Assembly: GCF_037902255.1 (NCBI RefSeq) | Contig: NZ_CP147990.1 | Coordinates: 3,960,001-3,992,000, forward strand | Direction of reading: 5' to 3' | From: Candidatus Electrothrix sp. GW3-4 | GTDB taxonomy: Bacteria > Desulfobacterota > Desulfobulbia > Desulfobulbales > Desulfobulbaceae | Length of the DNA: 32,000 nucleotides | Shown: one piece after another, positions 6,209-27,661 of the stretch | How the letters are laid out: every line of letters starts with the position of its first letter | Numbering within the stretch: position 1 is the stretch's first letter | Position numbers and translations under genes: made by a program | Notes under the pieces: model-generated | Databases searched by the model: none | Seen by the model: the letters and a program-made list of their open reading frames with translations, nothing else | Told to the model about the DNA's origin: nothing

Positions 6209-7438
6209 TTATTCCTGAACCTTACCCGCAAGAGACATCTGGGCCTCAAGCGGCAATTCCTCACCAGTCAACAGTTTGTTCCAGTAGACCCATTTGAACA
6301 TCATCTTGCCCCAATGATTGGCCTTGGTGTCGCCAAGGAGAGAAAAGGGTCCGAGACCAGGCAGGGGGAATTTACCAGGCAGCGGCTCGTACTCATAGTT
6401 GAAGTCAATGAGAGAGGCCTTACCAAAGCCGGTTTCAATAAAGCAGTTGGAATGTCCGTCATAGTCGGGTCGAACCGGCTCATCATTGATCTCCCGCATA
6501 AAGTTCTCTACCATGATTTCTGCGGAAAAATGGGCAACTGAACCGGCCTTGGAGGTAGGTATGGTTGTATTATCCCCAAGGACATACATATTTTTGTGAT
6601 TTTCCGCCTGCAAGGTATGGTTATTCGTCTTAACGTAACCGACCTCATCCATAGCAACCTCGGAATTGACCAGATAGCGCGCTCCCACATTGGGTGGAAT
6701 GGAAACCAGCAGATCCCATTCAATTTCATCACCTGATGCGGAAATAAGCTTGTTATCGTTGCAGTCAACCTCGGCAAGGATAAAATCCGCTGTAACCTTG
6801 ATGTTCTTGTCGTGCATCATCTTGGTAAAGTAGGCGGATGCCTTGGGTTTGGTAAAGGCGCCAGTCATGGGGGTGACAAAATGGATTTCAATATCATCAC
6901 GGACCCCTCGCTCGGTAAAATACCAGTCAGCAAGGTAAACGAATTCCAACGGGGCAACCGGACATTTATAGGGAAATTCGGCAATATCCAGCACCATCTT
7001 ACCACTTTTAAAGCTGCGCAGTTTCTTTTCCAGATTTATCGCCCCTTCCAGGGTGTAAAAATCAAAGACCTTGGTCTGCCAGCCGTCCATCATGCCTGGA
7101 ATCTCTTCCGGGGCCAAACTCACACCGGAACAAACGATGACTTTGTCGTATTCATATTTACCCGCTGTGGTCTCAACGACTTGCGTCTCCGTGTCAACGC
7201 CGATGATCTCATCAATGACAAAGTTGATCCCCTTGCCGATAAACTCGCTACGGGTGCGAACAATTTCTTCGGGCTTGTACATGCCAAAAGGAATAAAGAT
7301 CAGGCCGGGCTGATAAATATGTTTGTCATCTTTATCAATGACCGTGATTGACCATTCGTCACGATCCAGCTTTTTGCGCAAATTATTTGCAACCATTGTT
7401 CCTGCACAGCCCGCTCCAAGAATAACCAACTTTTTCAT
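6209..7438 (-). CDS. FAD-dependent pyridine nucleotide-disulfide oxidoreductase (sulfide:quinone oxidoreductase / NDH-2-like)
   Basis: N-terminal dinucleotide fold MKKLVILGAGCAGTMVA and a second GD motif (YVLGDNTTIPTSKAG). Length and layout fit the SQR-like family. Confidence 0.8.
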   Translation of the reverse strand: MKKLVILGAGCAGTMVANNLRKKLDRDEWSITVIDKDDKHIYQPGLIFIPFGMYKPEEIVRTRSEFIGKGINFVIDEIIGVDTETQVVETTAGKYEYDKVIVCSGVSLAPEEIPGMMDGWQTKVFDFYTLEGAINLEKKLRSFKSGKMVLDIAEFPYKCPVAPLEFVYLADWYFTERGVRDDIEIHFVTPMTGAFTKPKASAYFTKMMHDKNIKVTADFILAEVDCNDNKLISASGDEIEWDLLVSIPPNVGARYLVNSEVAMDEVGYVKTNNHTLQAENHKNMYVLGDNTTIPTSKAGSVAHFSAEIMVENFMREINDEPVRPDYDGHSNCFIETGFGKASLIDFNYEYEPLPGKFPLPGLGPFSLLGDTKANHWGKMMFKWVYWNKLLTGEELPLEAQMSLAGKVQE

Positions 7439-8271
7439 CGTTCATCTCTCCTTTGCGACTTCTGTTCGTTGACCGATCAAGACGATCGGCCCAATTTGAC
7501 TGCCATTGGAAACAGGGAAGAGAATGTCTTCATCTCAACACCTGGATCAGCTTCATGATGAAATTTTGAAGCTAAAGAATGAAGTACCACAAAGTACAAT
7601 CCTGGTCAATGAAGTTTTTTACCACCTCGTGGTATTCAAGACACTATTCAACTCACCTGGGACATCCAGCAACACTCCGCAAAAAAGAAATATCTTTGTG
7701 AGACAAGGAAATTTCTCAATACAGACATGTGGTTCAACATCTCAGGATGCTGCTTGAATGAGCAGCAGGTAACAGAGTAAAAAAAATTCAACGACGATAA
7801 AAAAAATTACCAATCATCATGCTGCCTGAAGAACAATCTGAAAAAAAAGAAAAGGAGGAGGGGACAGAGAAAGTCTCTTTTGAACCGTACAGCCCTGCTC
7901 GGCTCTCTTGCCATAATTGACGAAGGCAATTAACGGAAACCAGAAGCCCTGCTGTGAAACTCGGCCTTCCGGCTCTATTAATTGCCCTCACTGCTATTTG
8001 ACAGCATACCGCCCCTCTTGTCAAAGAAAAACCAACGAAAATACAGCAGGTTAGATGTGCTACACCCGGTGCATTATCAACGTATAAAAAATATACACAG
8101 TATAACTGTCAAACATTGTTGAACTATATATAGACTACTATAAGCCAGACTTCAACCACCCAAAACAGTATGCGAAATTAATACTCATCACCAATAACCA
8201 TAGAATACTATCCGCAAACACAAAAGGGATGCGATTATGACGTAAGCATCTACCAGGGTCGCGTGACCAGC

Positions 8272-8298
8272 GCGTGGCCCGGTTTCTTTTTGCCCTAC
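8272..8298 (+). repeat. 27-bp direct repeat, left copy; embedded in a terminator-like hairpin plus T-tract
   Basis: gcgtgGCCCggtttctttttgccctac matches 9253-9279 at 23 of 27 positions, including 18 contiguous identical bases (ggtttctttttgccctac). The upstream GGG-T-CGCG...CGCG-TGG-CCC stem followed by GGTTTCTTTTT resembles an intrinsic terminator. Confidence 0.8.
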
Positions 8299-8700
8299 AT
8301 TTTAGATCAAATGAGACGGTCTGACCAGTGCCTTTTTTCTAATATCTCCAATTTTTTGTAACGTATCAATGAAATTTTATAACAATTATGTCAAACTTCT
8401 CTTTTAACAAACTTTTATCCTCTTTTTTTTCAAAAAAAGAGTGAGAAAAAACAAAAGTTTTCACCCTCTCCTCCCTGTGCAACTCACTTGAATAGCAACT
8501 TTTTTCATACCCACCAATAAGAAAAACAACTTACTGATAATAGATAGAGTTATCAACTTATTGTTTTTACAATATTTCCATTGACTTTAATACAATATTG
8601 AACTTATTTATCTGTTTGTTCAATGGTGGCGACGAGCTCCTTAACGTAATCATCTCTTTTTCCAATCAATTACGTCAAAATCTGTACTAGGTGTTTTTTT

Positions 8701-8985
8701 ATGAATACTAAATTGAATTGCTGGGAATTTAAAAAATGTGGAAGAGAGCCAGGAGGAAGGAATGTTACACGATATGGGCTTTGTTCAGTACCCGTAGAGA
8801 TAGATTGTGACGGTCTTAATGGCGGAAAAAATGGCGGACGATCCTGTTGGTTATGGCGAGAAGTCGCTTGTGGAAAAATCATGAAGAAATCCTCTGTGCA
8901 GAGGATTAGAGAATGTCGTGAATGTAATTTTTACATTTCAGTCAAAAAAAACAGGGTAACGGAGCTATGCGCGAAAATTTTTTGA
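8701..8985 (+). CDS. Small Cys-rich protein with two Cys-Trp motifs ('two-CW'-like), copy 1
   Basis: MNTKLNCWEFKKCGREPGG...GKNGGRSCWLW...CRECNFY. An AGGTG sequence lies 7 nt upstream of the ATG. It is a paralogue of the next ORF with the same Cys/Trp spacing. Confidence 0.7.
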   Translation: MNTKLNCWEFKKCGREPGGRNVTRYGLCSVPVEIDCDGLNGGKNGGRSCWLWREVACGKIMKKSSVQRIRECRECNFYISVKKNRVTELCAKIF

Positions 8986-9248
8986 ATTGTTGGGAGGTAA
9001 AGGATTGCGGAAGAGAACCAAACGGAAAAAATGTCCCTTTACATGGTGTTTGTCCGGTTTCGGTTGATTTTCTTGTGGATGGTATTCATAATGGAAAAAA
9101 TGGAGGGCGCTGTTGCTGGGCTTTTGCTCCTGGCGTCACAAAAGAGAGTTATGACATCTCCAGTTACTATGAAAAGGCGCTAGGATGCCTTGGGTGTGAA
9201 TTCTACAAATCAGTTAAAGATACAACTGTATTGCTTGTTCGATTATAA
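8967..9248 (+). CDS. Small Cys-rich protein with two Cys-Trp motifs ('two-CW'-like), copy 2
   Basis: MRENFLNCWEVKDCGREPNG...GKNGGRCCWAF...CLGCEFY. A GGAG sequence lies just upstream of the ATG. It overlaps copy 1 by 19 nt. Confidence 0.7.
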   Translation: MRENFLNCWEVKDCGREPNGKNVPLHGVCPVSVDFLVDGIHNGKNGGRCCWAFAPGVTKESYDISSYYEKALGCLGCEFYKSVKDTTVLLVRL

Positions 9249-9252
9249 GAGA

Positions 9253-9279
9253 GCGTGATCTGGTTTCTTTTTGCCCTAC
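9253..9279 (+). repeat. 27-bp direct repeat, right copy
   Basis: gcgtgATCTggtttctttttgccctac starts 5 nt after the stop of the second two-CW gene and pairs with 8272-8298. Confidence 0.8.
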
Positions 9280-9357
9280 CCCCAATCCCGTCTGATTTTG
9301 ACTGTGATACCTGGGTACACAGAAAAAGCCCCCTGAAGTCAGTTCTGATTATACACA

Positions 9358-9380
9358 GGACCTCTCAGAGAGGTTTTCTC
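9358..9380 (+). terminator. Weak hairpin plus T-run; possible terminator of the two-CW gene pair
   Basis: acctct-cag-agaggt followed by tttctc, located between the convergent two-CW genes and recR. Confidence 0.3.
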
Positions 9381-9439
9381 GTGATGATGTTACCCCTCCG
9401 TTCCAACACCGGTCAAGTTCACAACTTTTCTTCTCTTAT

Positions 9440-10045
9440 TCATTTTTCTATAAACTGCCTGGATTCTATAGCTCTTGAGAGCGTATGTTCGTCTGCATAC
9501 TTGATGTCCATCCCCATAGGTATACCGCAGGCAAGGCGGGTCACCTTGACCGGCAAACCCGACAAATGATCAATCAGGTAGGAGGCAGTAGCTTCGCCCG
9601 GTACTGTGGAGCTGGTCGCGATCAGAATCTCCTCAATCCCCTGGCTTCGTACCCGCTGAAAGAGCTCACGAATCTTGAGCTCATCCGGTCCGATGCCCTC
9701 CATAGGAGCCAAAACCCCGTGGAGAATATGGTACACCCCGCGAAAGGCACCGGTTTTTTCAATGGCCAGCAGATCACCGGGTTCCTCCACCACGCAAACC
9801 AAGCGGTTATTGCGGCGGGCATCCTCACAGATACGACAGGGATCGTTCTCGGAAAAGGCAAAACAACGGCTGCAAAGCTGAATAGATGAATGGAGCTCAG
9901 CCAGACTTGCTGAGAGATTGAGGGCCTCGGCAGGAGGACGGCGCAGGAGGTAGAGAGCAAGTCGGGAGGCGGTCTTCTGACCGATACCCGGCAACCGGGT
10001 CAGATCGCTCATCAGCCGTTCCAGTGCCGGGGGAACAACCTGCAT
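9440..10045 (-). CDS. recR: Recombination protein RecR
   Basis: N-terminal helix-hairpin-helix LPGIGQKTASRLALYLL, a C4 zinc finger (CSRCFAFSENDPCRIC) and a Toprim region. It sits in the conserved dnaX-ybaB-recR order. Confidence 0.95.
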   Translation of the reverse strand: MQVVPPALERLMSDLTRLPGIGQKTASRLALYLLRRPPAEALNLSASLAELHSSIQLCSRCFAFSENDPCRICEDARRNNRLVCVVEEPGDLLAIEKTGAFRGVYHILHGVLAPMEGIGPDELKIRELFQRVRSQGIEEILIATSSTVPGEATASYLIDHLSGLPVKVTRLACGIPMGMDIKYADEHTLSRAIESRQFIEK

Positions 10046-12893: not shown

Positions 12894-13805
12894 CTATTTT
12901 TTACGATGGATATCATCATGACAAACAGTGCAGAGCGTGACAAGATTGTCTTCTGTATTTCCTCCGCCTGTTGCATGTGTTTTTTGGTGATGGAGTTCCA
13001 AATGACGTGGGTCGGACCGGTTCCATTCCTCATGTGACCATGCGCAGACAGTGCATTTATAATCGTCTCGCCGCAGGACATTGCGTTGAACAGGATCGGG
13101 AATACGGCGGTCATGTTCAGGACTTTGGCGATCAGCTTCCAGCAGATAAACTCCGACCTCAAGGTCGGGGCGTCCTGTATTTTTAGTAACAATCGGCCAG
13201 CCGTACTCGGTGCGTAGCTCCCTCACTCTTCTTGCCCACTCCGACTTGTCCCTGGCAAGATACTTCAATTCCTCGCCGGTTATTTTCTGACCGATATTCG
13301 TCCTGAAATACTTCAACAGTCTATCACGAACAGAAATATTTTCCCTGCGTATCTCGTTCGCTACATTCCAGCGATGAGCAGCATCCCTATCCTGCTCATC
13401 GGAAAGCAATATATAGTCCGAAGTCCCCATCGCTGCTGCATCAATATCTACAAGAGGAAACTCATTTTCTTCCGCCATCTGCGTAGCTGTCAGGCCGCTC
13501 GCTATCGACCAGCCGAATTGGACTCTCAACTCACGTATCCTCCGAGCATATTCCTGAATGCCCGAGACAACAAGCAGTTCATCTCCGCTGATGATCACTC
13601 CTTGGTATTTCAAGAAATAATGCAGTATCCTGTCGCGGGCACTGCGGGCCTCTTCAGCAGGAATGAGGGATTTCCCCAGGTCGCGCAACTGATGATAGCA
13701 TGGAACAAGGGAAAGTACCTTCTGCCGCAAATTATCAGAGCACAATTCTTCTTCAAAATCTATCAACAACTCCAGCAGCTGTTTTCGTATCGCTTCCGCT
13801 TTCAT
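12894..13805 (-). CDS. HNH-family endonuclease; probable type II restriction enzyme partner of the adjacent methyltransferase
   Basis: C-terminal HNH motif CTVCAW...HLELHHQKTHATGGGNTEDNLVTLCTVCHDDIH. Two internal ~50-aa repeats (RDRILHYF...ARRIRELRVQFGWSI and RDRLLKYF...ARRVRELRTEYGWPI) lie N-terminal to it. It overlaps the dcm gene by 4 nt. Confidence 0.8.
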   Translation of the reverse strand: MKAEAIRKQLLELLIDFEEELCSDNLRQKVLSLVPCYHQLRDLGKSLIPAEEARSARDRILHYFLKYQGVIISGDELLVVSGIQEYARRIRELRVQFGWSIASGLTATQMAEENEFPLVDIDAAAMGTSDYILLSDEQDRDAAHRWNVANEIRRENISVRDRLLKYFRTNIGQKITGEELKYLARDKSEWARRVRELRTEYGWPIVTKNTGRPDLEVGVYLLEADRQSPEHDRRIPDPVQRNVLRRDDYKCTVCAWSHEEWNRSDPRHLELHHQKTHATGGGNTEDNLVTLCTVCHDDIHRKK

Positions 13806-15010
13806 GTATCACCCCTGCTGTCCAGTAATACCCTGACTATATCAGCCACCCTTGCCGCAAGCAGAGGGGGAACAGCGTTACCGATCTGTTTAGCAATTTC
13901 AATTTTCGACCCGGTAAAACGAAAGCTGTCCGGAAAACTTTGAAACCGTGCTGCTTCCCTATGAGTGATCGGACGATGCTGCTCCGGGTGCAGGTAACGA
14001 CCTTTTTCCGGCTTAAAAAACTCTGTCCGTATCGTCACCGAGGGCCGGTCCCACCAGAGCCGACCGAATAGATCTGTACCGCCGGATTTCTTTCTGATCC
14101 AGCATTTCGGAGTTAATTCGGGAGCGACTCGCTGCAAATCAAAGCGGTTCATTCCCTCCTGCGGAATAGCCCTGTATCTTTTTCGGCTGAGTTCGGTAGG
14201 ATTTCTTCCGAAATGCAAATTAAGCGGCGGAGCTGTTTCTCTGATTTCCGTCCCTTCAGGCGGAGGAAGGTCCTTAATCGCATCTCGTACCGTTTTCCAA
14301 TGTTGAGGAGAAGATAAAAACTCCTGCTTCTCAAACGGCAGCAACAGCTGCTTGCTCTTTCCGTTCGGGTTGCAATGCGTTTTTCTCGGAGGAAAGAGCA
14401 TTGAGGGATCTGCAAAAGTACAGCCGATGATAAACGCCCTGGTACGAGTCTGTGGAACACCGTAGTCGGCAGCTATCAGCTTCTCCTGATAGACTTTAAA
14501 GCCAAGGGCTTGCGCCATCCCGACAATTTCCCCATGTTCAAAGGTACCAAGCAGTTGCGGTACGTTTTCCATAACAAATACTGAAGCCCCGCATTGCTCA
14601 ACAACTTTCAGGAAAGGACGCCAGAGTTCCTTCCGAGGGTCCTCAGCGCGTTTCTTATTCAACAGACTGAAGCCTTGGCAGGGAGGGCCTCCTATCACCA
14701 CGTCGGCACGGGGAATCCTGATCTGATTGTCTTTCAGTATTTCCGCAAGATCACCGGCAACACAGTGCGGACCGAAGTTCTCATTATATGTATCAACACA
14801 AAACTGATTACAGTCATTCGCCCAAACCGATTGAAAGGGCTGTCCAAAGGACTCGGAAAACCCTAATGACATGCCGCCAGCTCCGGCAAAGAGATCAATC
14901 AGCCGGTAACGCTGCGGGGTTTCTTTGAGCAAGGCACCGGAACAGCGCGTTCCATAGGAACGTTGGTCTTCGCGTAACAGCAGCATACTCTTCATGTGGT
15001 CAGAACTCAT
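13802..15010 (-). CDS. dcm: DNA (cytosine-5)-methyltransferase
   Basis: Canonical C5-MTase motifs are present: DLFAGAGGMSLGF (I), GGPPCQGFS (IV), ENV (VI), QTRTRAFIIG (VIII) and GNAVPP (X). Confidence 0.95.
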   Translation of the reverse strand: MSSDHMKSMLLLREDQRSYGTRCSGALLKETPQRYRLIDLFAGAGGMSLGFSESFGQPFQSVWANDCNQFCVDTYNENFGPHCVAGDLAEILKDNQIRIPRADVVIGGPPCQGFSLLNKKRAEDPRKELWRPFLKVVEQCGASVFVMENVPQLLGTFEHGEIVGMAQALGFKVYQEKLIAADYGVPQTRTRAFIIGCTFADPSMLFPPRKTHCNPNGKSKQLLLPFEKQEFLSSPQHWKTVRDAIKDLPPPEGTEIRETAPPLNLHFGRNPTELSRKRYRAIPQEGMNRFDLQRVAPELTPKCWIRKKSGGTDLFGRLWWDRPSVTIRTEFFKPEKGRYLHPEQHRPITHREAARFQSFPDSFRFTGSKIEIAKQIGNAVPPLLAARVADIVRVLLDSRGDT

Positions 15011-21444: not shown

Positions 21445-21625
21445 GGCTATTTCTCCCTGATCATGTTGATGAAATATAAATCACGTAGAGAACAGAGTAC
21501 CATCTCTGCAAAATTTTGTCTCGCCTGTTAAAGCTCTTTACTGGTGATGAAGTTGGAAGATCCGCTGAAAAGCGGTTCGCGTGAAGGGAAAAGACGATGA
21601 GAAGAAAAAAACTGCAATAAAAAAA

Positions 21626-21720
21626 GCCGGGCAACCCTGCAACACACAAAGGGACTCGCTGCCGCTGCTTCCTCCCGGACCTGACGGAGTTCACGATTCT
21701 TTGTTGTGCAGGACCCGGCT
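21626..21720 (-). ncRNA. ffs: Signal recognition particle RNA (4.5S-type SRP RNA)
   Basis: The minus strand reads AGCCGGGUCCUGCA...CCGUCAGGUCCGGGAGGAAGCAGCGGCAG...UGCAGGGUUGCCCGGCU followed by U7. It contains the conserved domain IV sequence GUCAGGUCC-GGGA-GGAAGCAGC with a GNRA tetraloop, and the 5' and 3' ends pair. Ends are accurate to roughly 5 nt. Confidence 0.85.
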
Positions 21721-21746
21721 ATCAAAACGTGGGTCAAATATGTAAT

Positions 21747-21832
21747 TGGCGGAGAGGGTGAGATTCGAACTCACGGTACTTGCGTACACACGCGTTCCAG
21801 GCGTGCACCTTAAGCCACTCGGTCACCTCTCC
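21747..21832 (-). tRNA. tRNA-Ser (anticodon GGA), CCA encoded
   Basis: The minus strand GGAGAGGUGACCGAGUGGCUUAAGGUGCACGCCUGGAACGCGUG-UGUACGCAAGUACC-GUGAGUUCGAAUCUCACCCUCUCCGCCA folds as a cloverleaf. It has a 7-bp acceptor stem, the anticodon loop CU-GGA-AC, a long variable arm and a GTTCGAATC T-loop. Confidence 0.95.
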
Positions 21833-23013: not shown

Positions 23014-24126
23014 ATGGAACCCTTACAACCTTTACAGCCCATACAGCCTGCGGGTTGCGGCTGCGAGAAAAAGCCAACCGGTCAGACGACCAGCATAAAA
23101 AAATTGAGCAAAGCGCAGGCATGGTTACTTGCTACTCTGGGTCTTGGCCTTTGGTACCTGATCTATAGCCAACTCCTGCCCTTCTCCCATTTCTTCACCT
23201 ACAGCCTCCTGGGCATCAACAAAGGAAGCCACCTCGGCGAGTCGATCCAATTCTTTGTCTATGACACCCCCAAGGTCATGATGTTGCTCACCCTTGTGGT
23301 GTTCCTTATCGGAGTCGTCCGCTCTTTCTTCACCCCGGAGCGAACTCGCCGCTATCTCGCAGGCAAAAAAGAGTTTGCCGGGAATATGTTAGCAGCTCTA
23401 TTGGGCATCATCACCCCATTTTGTTCCTGCTCCGCCGTCCCCCTTTTCCTCGGCTTTGTCCAGGCAGGTGTGCCCCTCGGTGTCACCTTTTCCTTCCTTA
23501 TTGCCGCGCCTATGGTGAACGAGGTTGCCCTGATCCTTCTTTACGGCCTCTTGGGCTGGAAAGTTGCCTCAATCTATCTTATTTCAGGCCTGCTCATTGC
23601 CATTATCGCAGGCTGGATTATTGGTCGCCTGAAGCTTGAGCACTGGGTTGAAGACTGGGTACAGGAGATGCGGACAGGACAGCCACTGGTTCTTACAAAA
23701 AAACTCACCTGGCATGACCGGGTAGACATGGGCTGGGTAGCGGTCAAAGAAATCATTGGCAAAGTCTGGCTCTATGTTATTGCCGGAATAGCCGTCGGGG
23801 CAGGTATTCACGGCTATGTGCCGGAAAAGGTCATGGCTACTGTGATGGGCGGTGACCAGTGGTGGTCGGTGCCAGCAGCTGTCTTAATCGGCATTCCCAT
23901 GTACTCCAATGCGGCCGGAATCGTGCCTGTGCTGGAGGCCCTGCTCGGCAAGGGAGCAGCCTTAGGAACAGCTCTGGCCTTTATGATGAGCGTCATCGCC
24001 CTGTCCCTGCCGGAAATGGTTATCCTGCGCAAGGTGCTTAAACCGAAACTGATTGCAGTCTTTGTCGGCGTGGTGGGATCAGGGATCCTTTTTACCGGGT
24101 ATCTCTTTAATCAGTACATAATGTGA
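23014..24126 (+). CDS. Permease (DUF318 / ArsP-like putative organoarsenical efflux permease)
   Basis: Polytopic membrane protein with the TPFCSCSAVPLF motif characteristic of this permease family. It lies downstream of arsR. Confidence 0.7.
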   Translation: MEPLQPLQPIQPAGCGCEKKPTGQTTSIKKLSKAQAWLLATLGLGLWYLIYSQLLPFSHFFTYSLLGINKGSHLGESIQFFVYDTPKVMMLLTLVVFLIGVVRSFFTPERTRRYLAGKKEFAGNMLAALLGIITPFCSCSAVPLFLGFVQAGVPLGVTFSFLIAAPMVNEVALILLYGLLGWKVASIYLISGLLIAIIAGWIIGRLKLEHWVEDWVQEMRTGQPLVLTKKLTWHDRVDMGWVAVKEIIGKVWLYVIAGIAVGAGIHGYVPEKVMATVMGGDQWWSVPAAVLIGIPMYSNAAGIVPVLEALLGKGAALGTALAFMMSVIALSLPEMVILRKVLKPKLIAVFVGVVGSGILFTGYLFNQYIM

Positions 24127-24810
24127 TTACGATACAATATCTTCAACCTGTTGAATAAAATTCTGCAGGCTATGCAGGCAATTTGGATCTGACTTTATCC
24201 TGCTGCGCAACTCATCAATATAATAGGATTCCGTAACCCCCCTTGGCTCGGATTTGCGGTAGGAAGAGGTTATTTTTTTCTCACGCAACATGGTTTTTAA
24301 GTAATGGAAATGATAATCACCGATTGATCCGCTATATCCTTGAGGTTGTCTCATCTTTTCAGGATCGTTTTGAGCCGTATTATAGTGACCGGTAAAAGCG
24401 GAAACTTCAGCAGAAGAAGGGTTTCGTGCGTAAATACGGCGGTTGCCGAGAAACCATGTCTCCATGCAGACAACCTGCGGCAGGATGACAACTTCACAGT
24501 TATTGAAGACAACATTATGATCAATGATGAATTCTTCGACTTCTTTCACTTTCTCCGTTGCCGAAACATCATCAGTATCAATCGCCAGAACAAAATAGTC
24601 AAATTTTCCCGAAGCATTCACATCAGCAGCAGAATCAACAAGATGATTATCAAGGATACTTGGAAAGCCGCCGCCGCTGATCAAATAGTAGTTATCCGCG
24701 AGAACATCAGAGGGAAAATCAACCCGTTTCAGCTGAGGCGCAAGATATGCCAGCCATTTCGGATACACCTTCCGCTCGGTTTTTCCCTCCACCAAAAAAT
24801 AGACATTCAC
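24127..24810 (-). CDS. Toprim-like protein (DUF4276 / RloB / AriB-like), putative nuclease effector
   Basis: The N-terminal MNVYFLVEGKTE supplies the Toprim Glu, and a later FVLAIDTDD supplies DxD. It overlaps the upstream ATPase gene by 4 nt. The gene is AT-rich. Confidence 0.65.
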   Translation of the reverse strand: MNVYFLVEGKTERKVYPKWLAYLAPQLKRVDFPSDVLADNYYLISGGGFPSILDNHLVDSAADVNASGKFDYFVLAIDTDDVSATEKVKEVEEFIIDHNVVFNNCEVVILPQVVCMETWFLGNRRIYARNPSSAEVSAFTGHYNTAQNDPEKMRQPQGYSGSIGDYHFHYLKTMLREKKITSSYRKSEPRGVTESYYIDELRSRIKSDPNCLHSLQNFIQQVEDIVS

Positions 24811-25913
24811 GACTCCACTCCTTCGGAGTAGATATCAAGATTGATTAATTGGGTAAAGGCTTGATGCTTTGATTTATCGAAATGAAACTCGGCAGCATCG
24901 CGGGCGGTCACTACACTGCCTTTTCTGGTAACGATCTTCCAGTTTGTATGATTGATGTTGTTGATTATATACGGATGATGACTTGTAATAATAAACTGAA
25001 GCCCTCTTTCAGAAGAAAGAATACTACTGGTCAGTTCGTCAATGCAGTTTATGCCAAGGCTGTTTTCAAATTCATCTATTAAGATCAGGCTGGAATCTGC
25101 GCATAAATGAAGCTGCGCTATATGAAGCAGCGTCTTGAGCATACCTGATGATATGTTAGAAATCCAATCAGCTACGCCCATTTCTTTAATTTGAATCTCA
25201 AGAGTAAAATGTTTTACAGCAGTTTCTATTGAAAACGGCACAGGTTCAATTCGCACTTCTTCAACAGAAGGAAAAATATCAATAAAACTGTTTACGATGC
25301 TGTCAAACAGTTGTCTTTCTTTCTTGCAGGCAAAATACAATTTCTCATCAAGAGGTATTGGGAGGTTGCGAACTTCGCCTATCCCAGAATATTTATTTAT
25401 ATCTTTGTCAAAAGACGAAGAGAAAGATGCCTTTATATCCATAACAGGAAATATGATTTTTTCAAATTCCTTTGCTGCTTCCTTTATTTGCTCTTCTTCC
25501 CTGAGTAGATACAATATACTTTGATCATTAGAAAGTTTTACTGTTTTTTTATTATTAAACAATATCCCGTTACGATCTCTCGTTACGATCAGCTCATTTT
25601 CCCTCTTAACCGATTCAGTTATGATAGATATCCCACTTGTATGATTTTCATCATTTTTAAACGAAACGTCAGTATCTTCAAATTCCCCCTCCCATGTATA
25701 CAGAGTTCCGCCTGATGATAAAAATTCAATATACCACTTAACACCTTTTAACGATTCCCCTTTTACTATCCTTTTTAAATCAAGAATTGAGTTCAATATA
25801 CGCGTCTTGCCCACTCCAGATGCCCCGACAAGCAACGTGAGCTGATCAAGGGACAGGGGTTGAAGCTCCCAGCCCGTTGTTCTGTCAGCAAAAAAAAATG
25901 TTTGTATCCGCAT
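24807..25913 (-). CDS. ABC/AAA_21-type ATPase, partner of the Toprim protein
   Basis: Walker A GASGVGKT, a signature-like SSGMLKTL, Walker B LILIDEFENSLG and an H-loop ITSHHP. The gene is AT-rich. Confidence 0.8.
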   Translation of the reverse strand: MRIQTFFFADRTTGWELQPLSLDQLTLLVGASGVGKTRILNSILDLKRIVKGESLKGVKWYIEFLSSGGTLYTWEGEFEDTDVSFKNDENHTSGISIITESVKRENELIVTRDRNGILFNNKKTVKLSNDQSILYLLREEEQIKEAAKEFEKIIFPVMDIKASFSSSFDKDINKYSGIGEVRNLPIPLDEKLYFACKKERQLFDSIVNSFIDIFPSVEEVRIEPVPFSIETAVKHFTLEIQIKEMGVADWISNISSGMLKTLLHIAQLHLCADSSLILIDEFENSLGINCIDELTSSILSSERGLQFIITSHHPYIINNINHTNWKIVTRKGSVVTARDAAEFHFDKSKHQAFTQLINLDIYSEGVES

Positions 25914-26008
25914 TATATAGCCTCGTTCTGATAACGATTACCCCGTACATACGTATCCACGTCATTAGCTACAATCACGCCGTAGTTGATCACGCCCAGC
26001 TTCCTTAC

Positions 26009-27031
26009 TTAACCCAAACCAGTACGTGATGTAATCTCTTCTATCTGTTGAATAAAATTCTTTTCATTCACAAAGCTCACATCATACATGCTCGTCAACC
26101 CTTGGCTCTGTTTGTCACTCAACCCCACAGCACAAATCAGAAACTGGCCGTCATCAAGCTTCAGGCGTTTCTTCAAGACGGAGTATTTCTCAATATCCTT
26201 GCGAAATTCTCCGGTCTTGCACTCAATGCATAGCGGTATGGTACCGTTGATAAGAAAAAATACATCAAGTTCATGCTGGTCTTCGTTTTGAAAAATCACA
26301 GAGAGATTACGAAGACAGGCAACAGGAATGTCCTTTTCACGGAAAAAATCCAACAGCTTCATAAAGACAAACCACTCCATCCATTCTCCGTTAAAGAAGT
26401 TCACTATTTTAGGCGCAGTTTGCAGCGTCAACCGAACGATCTTTTCCTGCTTTTGATAAAAATATTTGGCAACAAACGAGTAGTCATACAAATCCTTGCA
26501 GAATTGAGTTATGACCTTAATATCTTTTTGGCTTTTTTTATTGAGTGTGAGTTTAACCGTTGTATACCCTTTCCGCTGGATGTATTTAATTTTATCACTT
26601 ACAAGCCTGAGCGTGTCATAATGATCTCCCAGCTGCACTGCAACCTCATCGAAAAAACCGGTGGTATCAAGAGCCTGCTGGTTAACATTAACCTGAACAT
26701 GACGCTCTTGAAAAAACTTCACTATCGGTTCATATTGCTGTTTGCTTTTAAGCTCAGCAGTATTGTAAATATCAACCTCAGATAAAGATTGAAGCGACTC
26801 ATTTTCTTCTGGGGTTGATGCATCCTGAGATGCTTGTGGATCAACCTGACTGCGTAATTGCTGCAACTCTTTTTTCTGAGCCACAAACTGTTCAATAACC
26901 TTTGTAACAAAGGCGACGGTATCATAAATGGGACTCGGTGTTTTGCAGTGAGGACATTTTACAGATTTCCCCTGATAATCATTAGAAACTTCCCGAAGAT
27001 GTCCACATTTGCTACACCGAAAGAGGGCCAT
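26009..27031 (-). CDS. Zn-ribbon protein with a C-terminal PD-(D/E)xK nuclease domain (Card1/DUF1887-like)
   Basis: The N-terminus is CSKCGH...CPHCKT. The C-terminus GEWMEWFVFMKLL...HELDVFFLINGTIPLCIECKTGEF fits the E...D...ExK restriction-endonuclease-like core. The ~200-aa middle region is unrecognised. Confidence 0.6.
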   Translation of the reverse strand: MALFRCSKCGHLREVSNDYQGKSVKCPHCKTPSPIYDTVAFVTKVIEQFVAQKKELQQLRSQVDPQASQDASTPEENESLQSLSEVDIYNTAELKSKQQYEPIVKFFQERHVQVNVNQQALDTTGFFDEVAVQLGDHYDTLRLVSDKIKYIQRKGYTTVKLTLNKKSQKDIKVITQFCKDLYDYSFVAKYFYQKQEKIVRLTLQTAPKIVNFFNGEWMEWFVFMKLLDFFREKDIPVACLRNLSVIFQNEDQHELDVFFLINGTIPLCIECKTGEFRKDIEKYSVLKKRLKLDDGQFLICAVGLSDKQSQGLTSMYDVSFVNEKNFIQQIEEITSRTGLG

Positions 27032-27112
27032 TTTTTCTCCTGCTATCTTATCGAATCATTTTCCATCCACTCCCCATGGGGAAGGACAACAAAACATAAA
27101 AGTTTATCCACC

Positions 27113-27661
27113 TTATTCCTCTGCCATCTTCCTGCCCATGGCCTCCCGCTCCTGGGTCGCTTGCAGGAGGCGAAAAATCTCACGGCTATGCTGCTTATTC
27201 CGGCTCATGGCAAAGAGGAAGGCTAAACGATGCAGTTCATGTTGATCCACAGAAGGCAGTTCAACAGCAATATCCTTCACCACCTTGGACGACCAATCCT
27301 CGGTTAAATCCATATACTCTGCCTTGGCTGCACGCCGAGCTACAATAGCCTCCTCAACAAGGATATCCCGCAGGTACTCAAGCTCATGGAACTGTTTTTT
27401 CTTTTGCAGCTCTGTGCCCTTGCGCTTTCGCAAAAAGGCATAGAGTTCCTCGTTCGGCTCATCACGAAGAAGCTTGGTAATATACTTGATCTGTCGTTTT
27501 CTCGAGCCAGCTTTAAGACCTGCGACCTCGAGAAAGAGCTGCCGAACCTCCTCATCCACAGGGAGTTCACCCAACAGACCTGCTGGAAGAACAGCCAACT
27601 CTTGCACCAGTTCTTCGACCTGCTTTATCCTGCGCTTTTGCTCAGATCTACTCAGCTTCAT
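27113..27661 (-). CDS. yjgA: Ribosome-associated protein YjgA/DarP (DUF615)
   Basis: SRSEQKRRIKQVEELVQEL...SRKRQIKYITKLLR matches the YjgA family pattern. It overlaps the coaBC 3' end by 14 nt. Confidence 0.75.
   Translation of the reverse strand: MKLSRSEQKRRIKQVEELVQELAVLPAGLLGELPVDEEVRQLFLEVAGLKAGSRKRQIKYITKLLRDEPNEELYAFLRKRKGTELQKKKQFHELEYLRDILVEEAIVARRAAKAEYMDLTEDWSSKVVKDIAVELPSVDQHELHRLAFLFAMSRNKQHSREIFRLLQATQEREAMGRKMAEE

Follow-up and report, generated by a model that had tools for sequence, protein, structure and literature searches.

Three genes between arsP and darP

The window analysed here is a 32,000-nt stretch of DNA from the cable bacterium Candidatus Electrothrix sp. GW3-4 (contig NZ_CP147990.1, positions 3,960,001 to 3,992,000). 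Between an arsP-like permease gene and darP (yjgA), it contains three adjacent genes on the minus strand, which encode a DUF4276-like Toprim-type nuclease, an ABC-type ATPase and a Zn-ribbon nuclease that we call P3 (Table 1). A previous reading made from the letters alone (the sequence-only reading) had described three open reading frames (ORFs) with a 4-nt overlap and a 95-nt gap, and the ORF coordinates agree with it exactly. They likewise confirm a convergent junction with no intergenic bases, with arsP reaching to 24126 and the stop codon of the Toprim gene occupying the adjacent bases from 24127. The block is also AT-richer than its surroundings, as had been proposed, with GC contents of 0.43 (Toprim gene), 0.377 (ATPase gene) and 0.404 (P3), compared to 0.50-0.53 for the flanking genes and 0.487 for the whole window. 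Homology searches returned hundreds of full-length homologues for each of the three ORFs, which are real genes.

The three genes had been proposed to form one module. We consider it probable that the locus is instead a composite of two independent units, i.e., an ATPase-Toprim cassette and a resident P3 gene. To establish how the genes are linked elsewhere, P3 was surveyed with one genome per species across ~185,000 species genomes, giving 315 relatives and 80 loci that were kept, and the Toprim alignment was used to scan metagenomic and viral sequences, which gave 81 loci with the pair. By tblastn, the ATPase and Toprim genes are present beside P3 in only 1 of the 80 P3 genomes, and this one (L001) is a near-identical metagenome-assembled genome (MAG) with a P3 that is 99% identical. 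Conversely, P3 is near the pair in 0 of the 81 pair loci. Because of these counts, the absence of the cassette from sister genomes and the presence of a direct repeat that brackets the insert, the two units are separate, and P3 is a solitary resident gene. The sequence-only reading had itself named a lack of co-occurrence in other genomes as speaking against its module, and such co-occurrence was not found outside the near-identical L001.

A cassette inserted into the ends of two convergent genes

The genomes of two sister species display the locus in its uninserted form. In E. gigas, the order is darP, P3 (86% identical) and arsP, without a cassette and with overlapping 3' ends of P3 and arsP; in E. 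marina, it is darP, P3, an arsP remnant and tadA, again without a cassette. The position of darP upstream of P3 is shared by loci L001, L003 and L011. At GW3-4, a repeat search identified two copies of a 34-nt direct repeat that bracket the cassette (85% identity, with a 17-nt exact core and a spacing of 1897 nt). In the alignment with the uninserted loci of E. gigas and E. marina, the left copy diverges from P3 exactly at the start of the Toprim body. The convergent arsP and P3 genes, whose 3' ends overlapped, have therefore received a cassette of ~1.9 kb (about 24165-26027) at that overlap, and the duplication of ~34 nt patched both reading frames, with P3 keeping a functional tail.

The insertion has left its mark on the protein as well. 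The last ~11 codons of the window Toprim gene specify NFIQQVEDIVS, unlike the ends of the closest homologues (82-91% identical), which are NFLMFLENSKK, DFLIFLERS or NFFTLLENF, and matching the end of P3 (NFIQQIEEITS...). For these reasons, the Toprim C-terminus is chimeric and derived from the P3 tail. The AT-rich "island" is thus made up of an older acquired gene, P3, whose AT content exceeds that of the host in three Electrothrix genomes, and a recent 1.9-kb insertion. The junction provides a clean, datable case in which a cassette of the defence type has entered a site where the ends of two convergent genes overlap.

Table 1. Coordinates of the genes, repeats and other features of the locus (window numbering)
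Feature	Coordinates	Strand	Remarks
Toprim gene (DUF4276-like Toprim-type nuclease)	24127..24810	-	227 aa; GTG start
ATPase gene (ABC-type, AAA_21)	24807..25913	-	368 aa; 4-nt GTGA overlap with Toprim gene
P3 gene (Zn-ribbon nuclease)	26009..27031	-	340 aa; after 95-nt gap
Spacer, P3 stop to ATPase start	25914..26008	-	95 nt; upstream edge of inserted cassette
Direct repeat (34 nt), left copy	24131..24164	.	Ancestral P3 3' tail abutting arsP; now codes for Toprim C-terminus
Direct repeat (34 nt), right copy	26028..26061	.	Inside P3 3' end; present P3 tail
P3 middle alpha/beta domain, coding region	26417..26776	-	Residues 86-205; in place of the CARF domain of Card1/Can2
P3 parts in the AlphaFold2 model			Zn ribbon, residues 1-37; long helix, 38-63; disordered linker, 64-85; alpha/beta domain, ~86-205; nuclease, ~206-336
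arsP-like permease gene	23014..24126	+	Pfam ArsP_1, 3e-78; ancestral convergent neighbour of P3
darP (yjgA) gene	27113..27661	-	Pfam DarP, 1e-24; conserved upstream neighbour of P3 in Electrothrix
Palindrome TCCCCATGGGGA	27071..27082	.	darP-P3 intergenic region; lineage-specific

The ATPase-Toprim pair is a mobile two-gene cassette

In all 81 pair loci, ATPase sequence is found directly upstream of the Toprim gene, with a gap of 0 to 13 nt, demonstrating that the pair forms an obligate cassette of two genes. There is no conserved third gene: the largest neighbour family occurs in 3 of the 81 loci, and neither a methyltransferase nor a helicase is conserved beside the pair. The cassette is mobile between sites and replicons. 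It separates dnaK from dnaJ in one organism (L085, 2888-4704) and hisG from hisD in another (L097, 2850-4693; spacers of 37-48 nt), and E. aarhusensis has it at a different chromosomal site. On the Acinetobacter plasmid pAV2, it lies between two ISNCY copies and beside a RelE/ParE pair; on the Methylovorus plasmid pMsip02, it is accompanied by a Zot gene and an integrase. On one viral contig, the cassette adjoins a P2-type portal and terminase, a position that we take to resemble the known defence hotspot of P2-like phages.

Nothing points to self-driven movement of the cassette. At the dnaK-dnaJ and hisG-hisD sites, the few kb that were mapped revealed no recombinase gene. Conserved cassette ends or a homing-like target motif were considered and rejected, as no 8-mer is enriched in the 150 nt upstream and downstream of ~48 cassettes. 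Nor are flanking repeats a general mark of cassette insertion: direct repeats bracket none of six other sites examined, and the 34-nt duplication is particular to the GW3-4 event.

One locus has a split ATPase (L125, 2935-5591), in which the last 73 codons are located directly upstream of the Toprim gene and the first 287 codons ~0.9 kb downstream. Rearrangement or decay of this copy would account for the split, as would an assembly error.

The window ATPase matches Pfam AAA_21 (4.3e-18), with weaker matches to SMC_N and ABC_tran, in line with its earlier assignment as an ABC-type protein. The motifs noted before are present, and 54 homologues with 38-56% identity to the window ATPase retain them: Walker A (GASGVGKT; GxSGxGKT as the pattern), the signature SSGM and the Walker B/D-loop LILIDEF(ENSLG), together with an H-loop, TSHHP. 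The ATPase gene is translationally coupled to the Toprim gene by the GTGA overlap, and its product is predicted to be the sensor or antitoxin of the cassette.

For the Toprim protein, the predicted effector or toxin, the proposal that it is nearer to DUF4276/RloB than to DUF4435 held up well, given that 23 of 25 family members match Pfam DUF4276, 5 match RloB and none matches DUF4435. Residues E8, E12, D78, D80 and E117 are invariant in the 25 homologues, and the family has no sequence relative in the PDB. A 2025 study placed DUF4276 and RloB in the Toprim superfamily with the same E...DxD signature and recognised Mad4 as a DUF4276 homologue.

Architecture of the putative nuclease P3

The third protein had been read as a Zn ribbon followed by a PD-(D/E)xK core, and our data agree, with the core being of the Card1/Can2 type. 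P3 exceeds the cut-off for Pfam Card1_endonuc (PF09002; 28.2 versus 26.4 bits), and its AlphaFold2 model (predicted local distance difference test (pLDDT) score of 84.5; predicted template modelling (pTM) score of 0.75) has VC1899 (1xmx) as best Foldseek match (1e-10), followed by Cdn1, Can2 and Card1. Sequence similarity to these proteins is restricted to the nuclease domain (profile positions 191-308), which contains the motifs FFNGEWxEW, ELD and ECK. Residues C6, C9, C26 and C29 of the Zn ribbon and the catalytic D256, E270 and K272 are invariant in 24 homologues, and the Card1/Can2-type nuclease domain has its catalytic residues intact.

The "~200-aa middle domain" of the sequence-only reading needs to be revised: in the model, this region consists of a long helix, a disordered linker and an alpha/beta domain of ~120 residues with 3-4 strands and an invariant DTTGFFDE motif. 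Modelled alone (pLDDT 75.5), the alpha/beta domain has no Foldseek match at E<=1e-3. The sole plausible resemblance is to an Smr-like beta-alpha-beta sandwich (E 0.2), while VC1899 is found at E 0.26 with a root-mean-square deviation (rmsd) of 9.3 A. P3 has no match among PDB sequences outside its nuclease domain, and a search of a viral structure library with P3 yielded nothing significant. A CARF assignment for the middle domain is therefore without support in these tests, and the same holds for the NCBI name of the P3 family, "DUF1887 family CARF protein".

The module formed by the middle domain and the nuclease also occurs fused to TerD, to a different Zn ribbon, to long coiled coils or to an extra C-terminal domain. 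In three relatives (P0262, P0274 and P0370), an N-terminal TerD domain (tellurite-resistance/Ca-binding) replaces the Zn ribbon, while the middle-domain motif (here DTSGFFDE) and the nuclease core are kept; five others (P0314, P0321, P0329, P0343 and P0355) have an added, conserved C-terminal domain of ~170 residues without a Pfam match. Such exchange of sensor-like modules, with the effector staying constant, is characteristic of conflict systems, whereas the strong conservation of P3 and its location outside defence islands point in the opposite direction. A literature search for DUF1887 in combination with TerD yielded nothing useful.

Distribution and neighbours of P3

P3 is about 50-65% identical across phyla. 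Of the 1161 representative clusters retrieved by an exhaustive profile search, 233 reach E<=1e-30. No partner gene is conserved: the largest neighbour family, presumably ABC-F/ABC ATPases as read from the sequences, is present in 18 of the 80 loci and at variable distances. The neighbours are lineage-specific and mostly housekeeping genes. A Pfam scan of 20 immediate neighbours from 15 lineages identified, amongst others, IspG, SecA, Pta, a heptosyltransferase, a CFA synthase and a DinG-like helicase, the latter next to P3 in a Methyloprofundus MAG (L031); another neighbour is, as we read its sequence, a metallo-beta-lactamase (MBL)-fold hydrolase. None of the 20 scanned neighbours is a cas gene, and no cas-like family recurs in the 80 loci; Cas10 was not searched for genome-wide.

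Two further neighbours were identified by reading their sequences. P3 adjoins what we take to be a topoisomerase III-like gene in seven Desulfobulbaceae loci (L009, L012, L013, L023, L024, L046 and L056), being located directly upstream of it in L009 and L012, and is directly upstream of a presumed RecQ-like gene in Zoogloea-type loci (L040, L053, L054 and L066). That P3 adjoins topoisomerase III-like, RecQ-like and DinG-like genes, each in a separate lineage, hints weakly at a role in DNA metabolism.

Other features of the window

The palindrome noted by the sequence-only reading exists: TCCCCATGGGGA is a perfect 12-nt palindrome with a single occurrence in the window, where 0 matches are expected by chance. 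A role as an island edge is ruled out, as it is missing in E. gigas and E. marina, both of which carry P3. The sequence is located within a ~50-nt intergenic stretch that is private to GW3-4 and the near-identical L001 (L001 4538-4650), and the darP-P3 spacer is shorter in E. gigas and E. marina than in GW3-4. This stretch could be an operator or a small insertion.

In an Rfam scan of the window, only a signal recognition particle (SRP) RNA and a tRNA-Ser were matched, both outside the locus. The small bacterial SRP RNA (21622-21720) adjoins tRNA-Ser(GGA) (21747-21832) on the minus strand, upstream of tadA, and neither an integrase nor an attachment-site repeat was seen near the two (21622-21832). 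Between dnaX and this region, about 9-10 kb from the locus, there is a gene for a C5 cytosine DNA methyltransferase (13802-15010), followed with a 4-nt overlap by one for a protein with an HNH endonuclease domain (12894-13805; minus strand). Together, they look like a type II restriction-modification (R-M)-like pair. A region of ~2 kb (7438-9440) lacks ORFs of >=150 aa on both strands and is without Rfam matches at the gathering threshold.

Interpretation and alternatives

While the anatomy of the locus, the conservation of motifs, the linkage or lack of it and the insertion junction can be read off directly, the biochemical activities, triggers and phenotypes considered below are what we infer. 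By analogy with PARIS and with validated AAA/TOPRIM toxin-antitoxin pairs, and given the anatomy described here, the pair is likely to consist of a toxic effector and an ATPase gate. An ATPase oligomer would hold the Toprim nuclease inactive and sense a trigger derived from an invader. ATP-dependent release would then allow the nuclease to cut nucleic acid (tRNA or DNA), and this cleavage would result in arrest of the cell or the invader. On plasmids and phages, the cassette would act as an addiction module by virtue of the same property. PARIS is the only relative of this kind for which the mechanism has been worked out, with an ATPase scaffold that sequesters the nuclease, a trigger that releases it and cleavage of tRNA as the outcome; pairs of AAA and TOPRIM_OLD proteins have been validated experimentally as toxin-antitoxin pairs. 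With regard to the main role of the pair, we lean slightly towards defence against phages or plasmids.

P3 very probably has nuclease activity. We envisage a dimeric, metal-dependent nuclease with a dimerising helix, which would be gated by its N-terminal modules and would respond to a signal other than the cyclic oligoadenylates of type III CRISPR systems. Its role may lie in defence, stress response or DNA repair. We put forward, tentatively, that P3 may represent an undescribed branch of Card1/Can2 in which CARF has been swapped for interchangeable N-terminal modules (Zn ribbon with coiled coil, TerD or other ribbons) plus a new alpha/beta domain with the DTTGFFDE motif, making it a solitary, signal-gated nuclease; instead of cyclic oligoadenylates, it could for instance respond to the end of a nucleic acid, to metal or Ca2+ stress or to a new small ligand.

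The separation into two units has to be weighed against the original view of a single defence module, in which P3 would be a second, sensor-linked effector. The single-module view has in its favour that the three genes lie side by side, share a strand and are each AT-rich, and that P3 and the ATPase gene have no detected terminator between them. The minus strand of the 95-nt spacer showed neither a consensus promoter nor a consensus terminator, and the counts from the promoter and terminator scan match the chance expectation. Given the shared strand and the lack of a detected terminator, P3 and the cassette may be co-transcribed in strain GW3-4. However, the near-absence of linkage in the P3 genomes and its absence from the pair loci, the presence of P3 in the same slot without the pair in sister species and the visible insertion scar make a single module extremely unlikely. 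Besides the possible co-transcription, a number of observations count against our interpretation. The window Toprim protein matches DUF4276 at 1e-3 and 19.8 bits, below the cut-off of 30.2, and has no PADLOC match at E<=0.01; its fold is deduced from family membership, motifs and the literature; and the pair family matches every named system weakly. In addition, the cassette in most loci is found among housekeeping genes and not in evident defence islands, and a defence gene would not usually be as strongly conserved in sequence, or as stable in its synteny within lineages, as P3. The housekeeping surroundings of the cassette suggest that it could be purely selfish, i.e., an addiction cassette without an anti-phage role that is kept since its loss kills the cell. 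Its presence on small plasmids beside another toxin-antitoxin pair, its position wedged between essential genes such as dnaK and dnaJ, and the behaviour of AAA/TOPRIM pairs as toxin-antitoxin pairs would all fit. On the other hand, the relatives AbiL, PARIS and MAD3-4 protect against phage, one locus adjoins the P2-type portal and terminase genes, and defence and addiction are not mutually exclusive, so that we regard a purely selfish cassette as unlikely. There is hardly any case for the pair as a fragment of a larger methylation-based system, such as MADS or a type I R-M system with RloA/RloB-like genes. The points in its favour are the C5 methyltransferase and HNH pair at a distance of 10 kb and mad3 matches of the ATPase, which are weak (PADLOC 1.7e-10; 21 bits for NCBIfam MADS3, far from the cut-off of 420 bits). 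No MAD4 model is matched, core genes separate the pair from the C5 methyltransferase and HNH genes of the window, and no methyltransferase or other gene is conserved beside the pair in the 81 loci.

For P3, two other explanations need to be considered. A genuine CARF effector, for which a type III CRISPR system or a comparable source would supply the activating cyclic oligoadenylates, would be in keeping with the alignment of the full-length P3 model with CARF-nuclease proteins over 240-270 columns and with the matches to the PADLOC CARF_PDDEXK models (2e-11). The sequence similarity is confined to the nuclease domain, however, and the middle domain has, as described above, too poor a match to VC1899 to be significant; moreover, the most widespread neighbour family covers 18 of the 80 loci, and the Pfam scan of 20 immediate neighbours turned up no cas gene. 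We therefore consider this explanation quite improbable. In the other, P3 would have no part in defence and would process DNA, as a housekeeping or stress-related nuclease, together with repair helicases and topoisomerases. Its sequence identity across phyla, stable synteny within lineages, housekeeping surroundings and the topoisomerase III-like, RecQ-like and DinG-like neighbours argue for such a role. Set against this are its patchy distribution (315 relatives among ~185,000 species genomes), its AT-richness relative to the host in three genomes of Electrothrix, the swapping of N-terminal modules among relatives, as seen in conflict systems, and the limitation of each repair-gene adjacency to one lineage, which together make a pure housekeeping function rather doubtful.

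Within the proposed composite of two units, the P3 nuclease family is more novel than the pair. In it, a Card1-type nuclease domain has been recruited with no CARF domain detected, and strong purifying selection maintains it in many phyla; if its trigger were found, this type of effector would be seen to operate outside cyclic-oligoadenylate signalling. The pair, a bare two-ORF unit found between essential genes, on plasmids and on phage contigs, could, with its 368-residue ATPase, serve as a minimal model of how an ATPase gates a Toprim nuclease.

Comparison with known systems

P3 and the Card1/Can2/Cdn1/VC1899 proteins (DUF1887 CARF-nucleases) have a homologous PD-(D/E)xK domain with FxNGxWxE, ELD and ExK motifs. 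The latter, however, bind cA4 or cA6 through a CARF domain at their N-terminus and occur alongside type III CRISPR systems, whereas P3 has a Zn ribbon, a helix and the ~120-residue domain and is solitary among housekeeping genes.

The pair has all the general features of split OLD-like systems, namely the ABC motifs, an invariant Glu and DxD, and obligate linkage (81/81), consistent with the OLD, PARIS and AbiL logic that the sequence-only reading had recognised in it. The literature groups AbiL and MADS3-4 with the ABC ATPase + TOPRIM systems. In these tests, the pair is an uncharacterised clade within the split OLD-like ABC ATPase + Toprim kind that could be assigned to none of the named systems. 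Gabija and class 2 OLD differ in layout: GajA fuses ATPase and Toprim and has a UvrD-like helicase partner, whereas here the two are separate genes without a conserved helicase. Besides the matches given below, the ATPase matches PtuA models. PARIS (AriA/AriB; class 4 OLD-like) also combines a split ABC ATPase with a Toprim nuclease, and the PADLOC AriA model matches our ATPase at 3e-18. AriB, however, is a DUF4435 protein, and neither the window protein nor its 25 homologues match this domain; AriB and MAD4 have no PADLOC match with the window protein or with Toprim family members. The ATPase is also shorter (368 versus 464 residues for AriA), and AriA from the PDB aligns over residues 251-319 only.

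MAD3-MAD4 and the DUF4276 domains of Menshen NsnC resemble the pair in having a DUF4276-type Toprim partner and an AAA ATPase. MADS is nevertheless an eight-gene, methylation-associated system in which MAD6-8 are mandatory, whereas the pair stands alone in its 81 loci, and the low MAD3 score and missing MAD4 match described above set the two further apart. HEC-01, itself only a PADLOC candidate, has an A component that matches the ATPase at 4.5e-11 and a B component that matches up to 10 of the 25 Toprim members, albeit weakly (best 8.6e-7) and not the window protein at E<=0.01.

AbiL from Lactococcus and the RloA/RloB-type pairs are likewise two-gene operons with an ABC/Rad50-like ATPase first and a small Toprim-type nuclease second. 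AbiLi is the best PADLOC match of the ATPase (3e-20), and AbiLii is matched by most of the Toprim family members (21/25). These AbiLii matches are weak (best 6e-7), the window protein reaching E 0.01 over profile positions 31-63 of 170 only, and DUF4276 predominates over RloB among the Toprim partners, as described above. From these profile matches, the pair looks like a sister clade of AbiL and not AbiL itself. It adds a compact, widespread clade of the DUF4276 type, barely detected by the present PADLOC and NCBIfam models, to the family of ABC-ATPase + Toprim defence and toxin systems.

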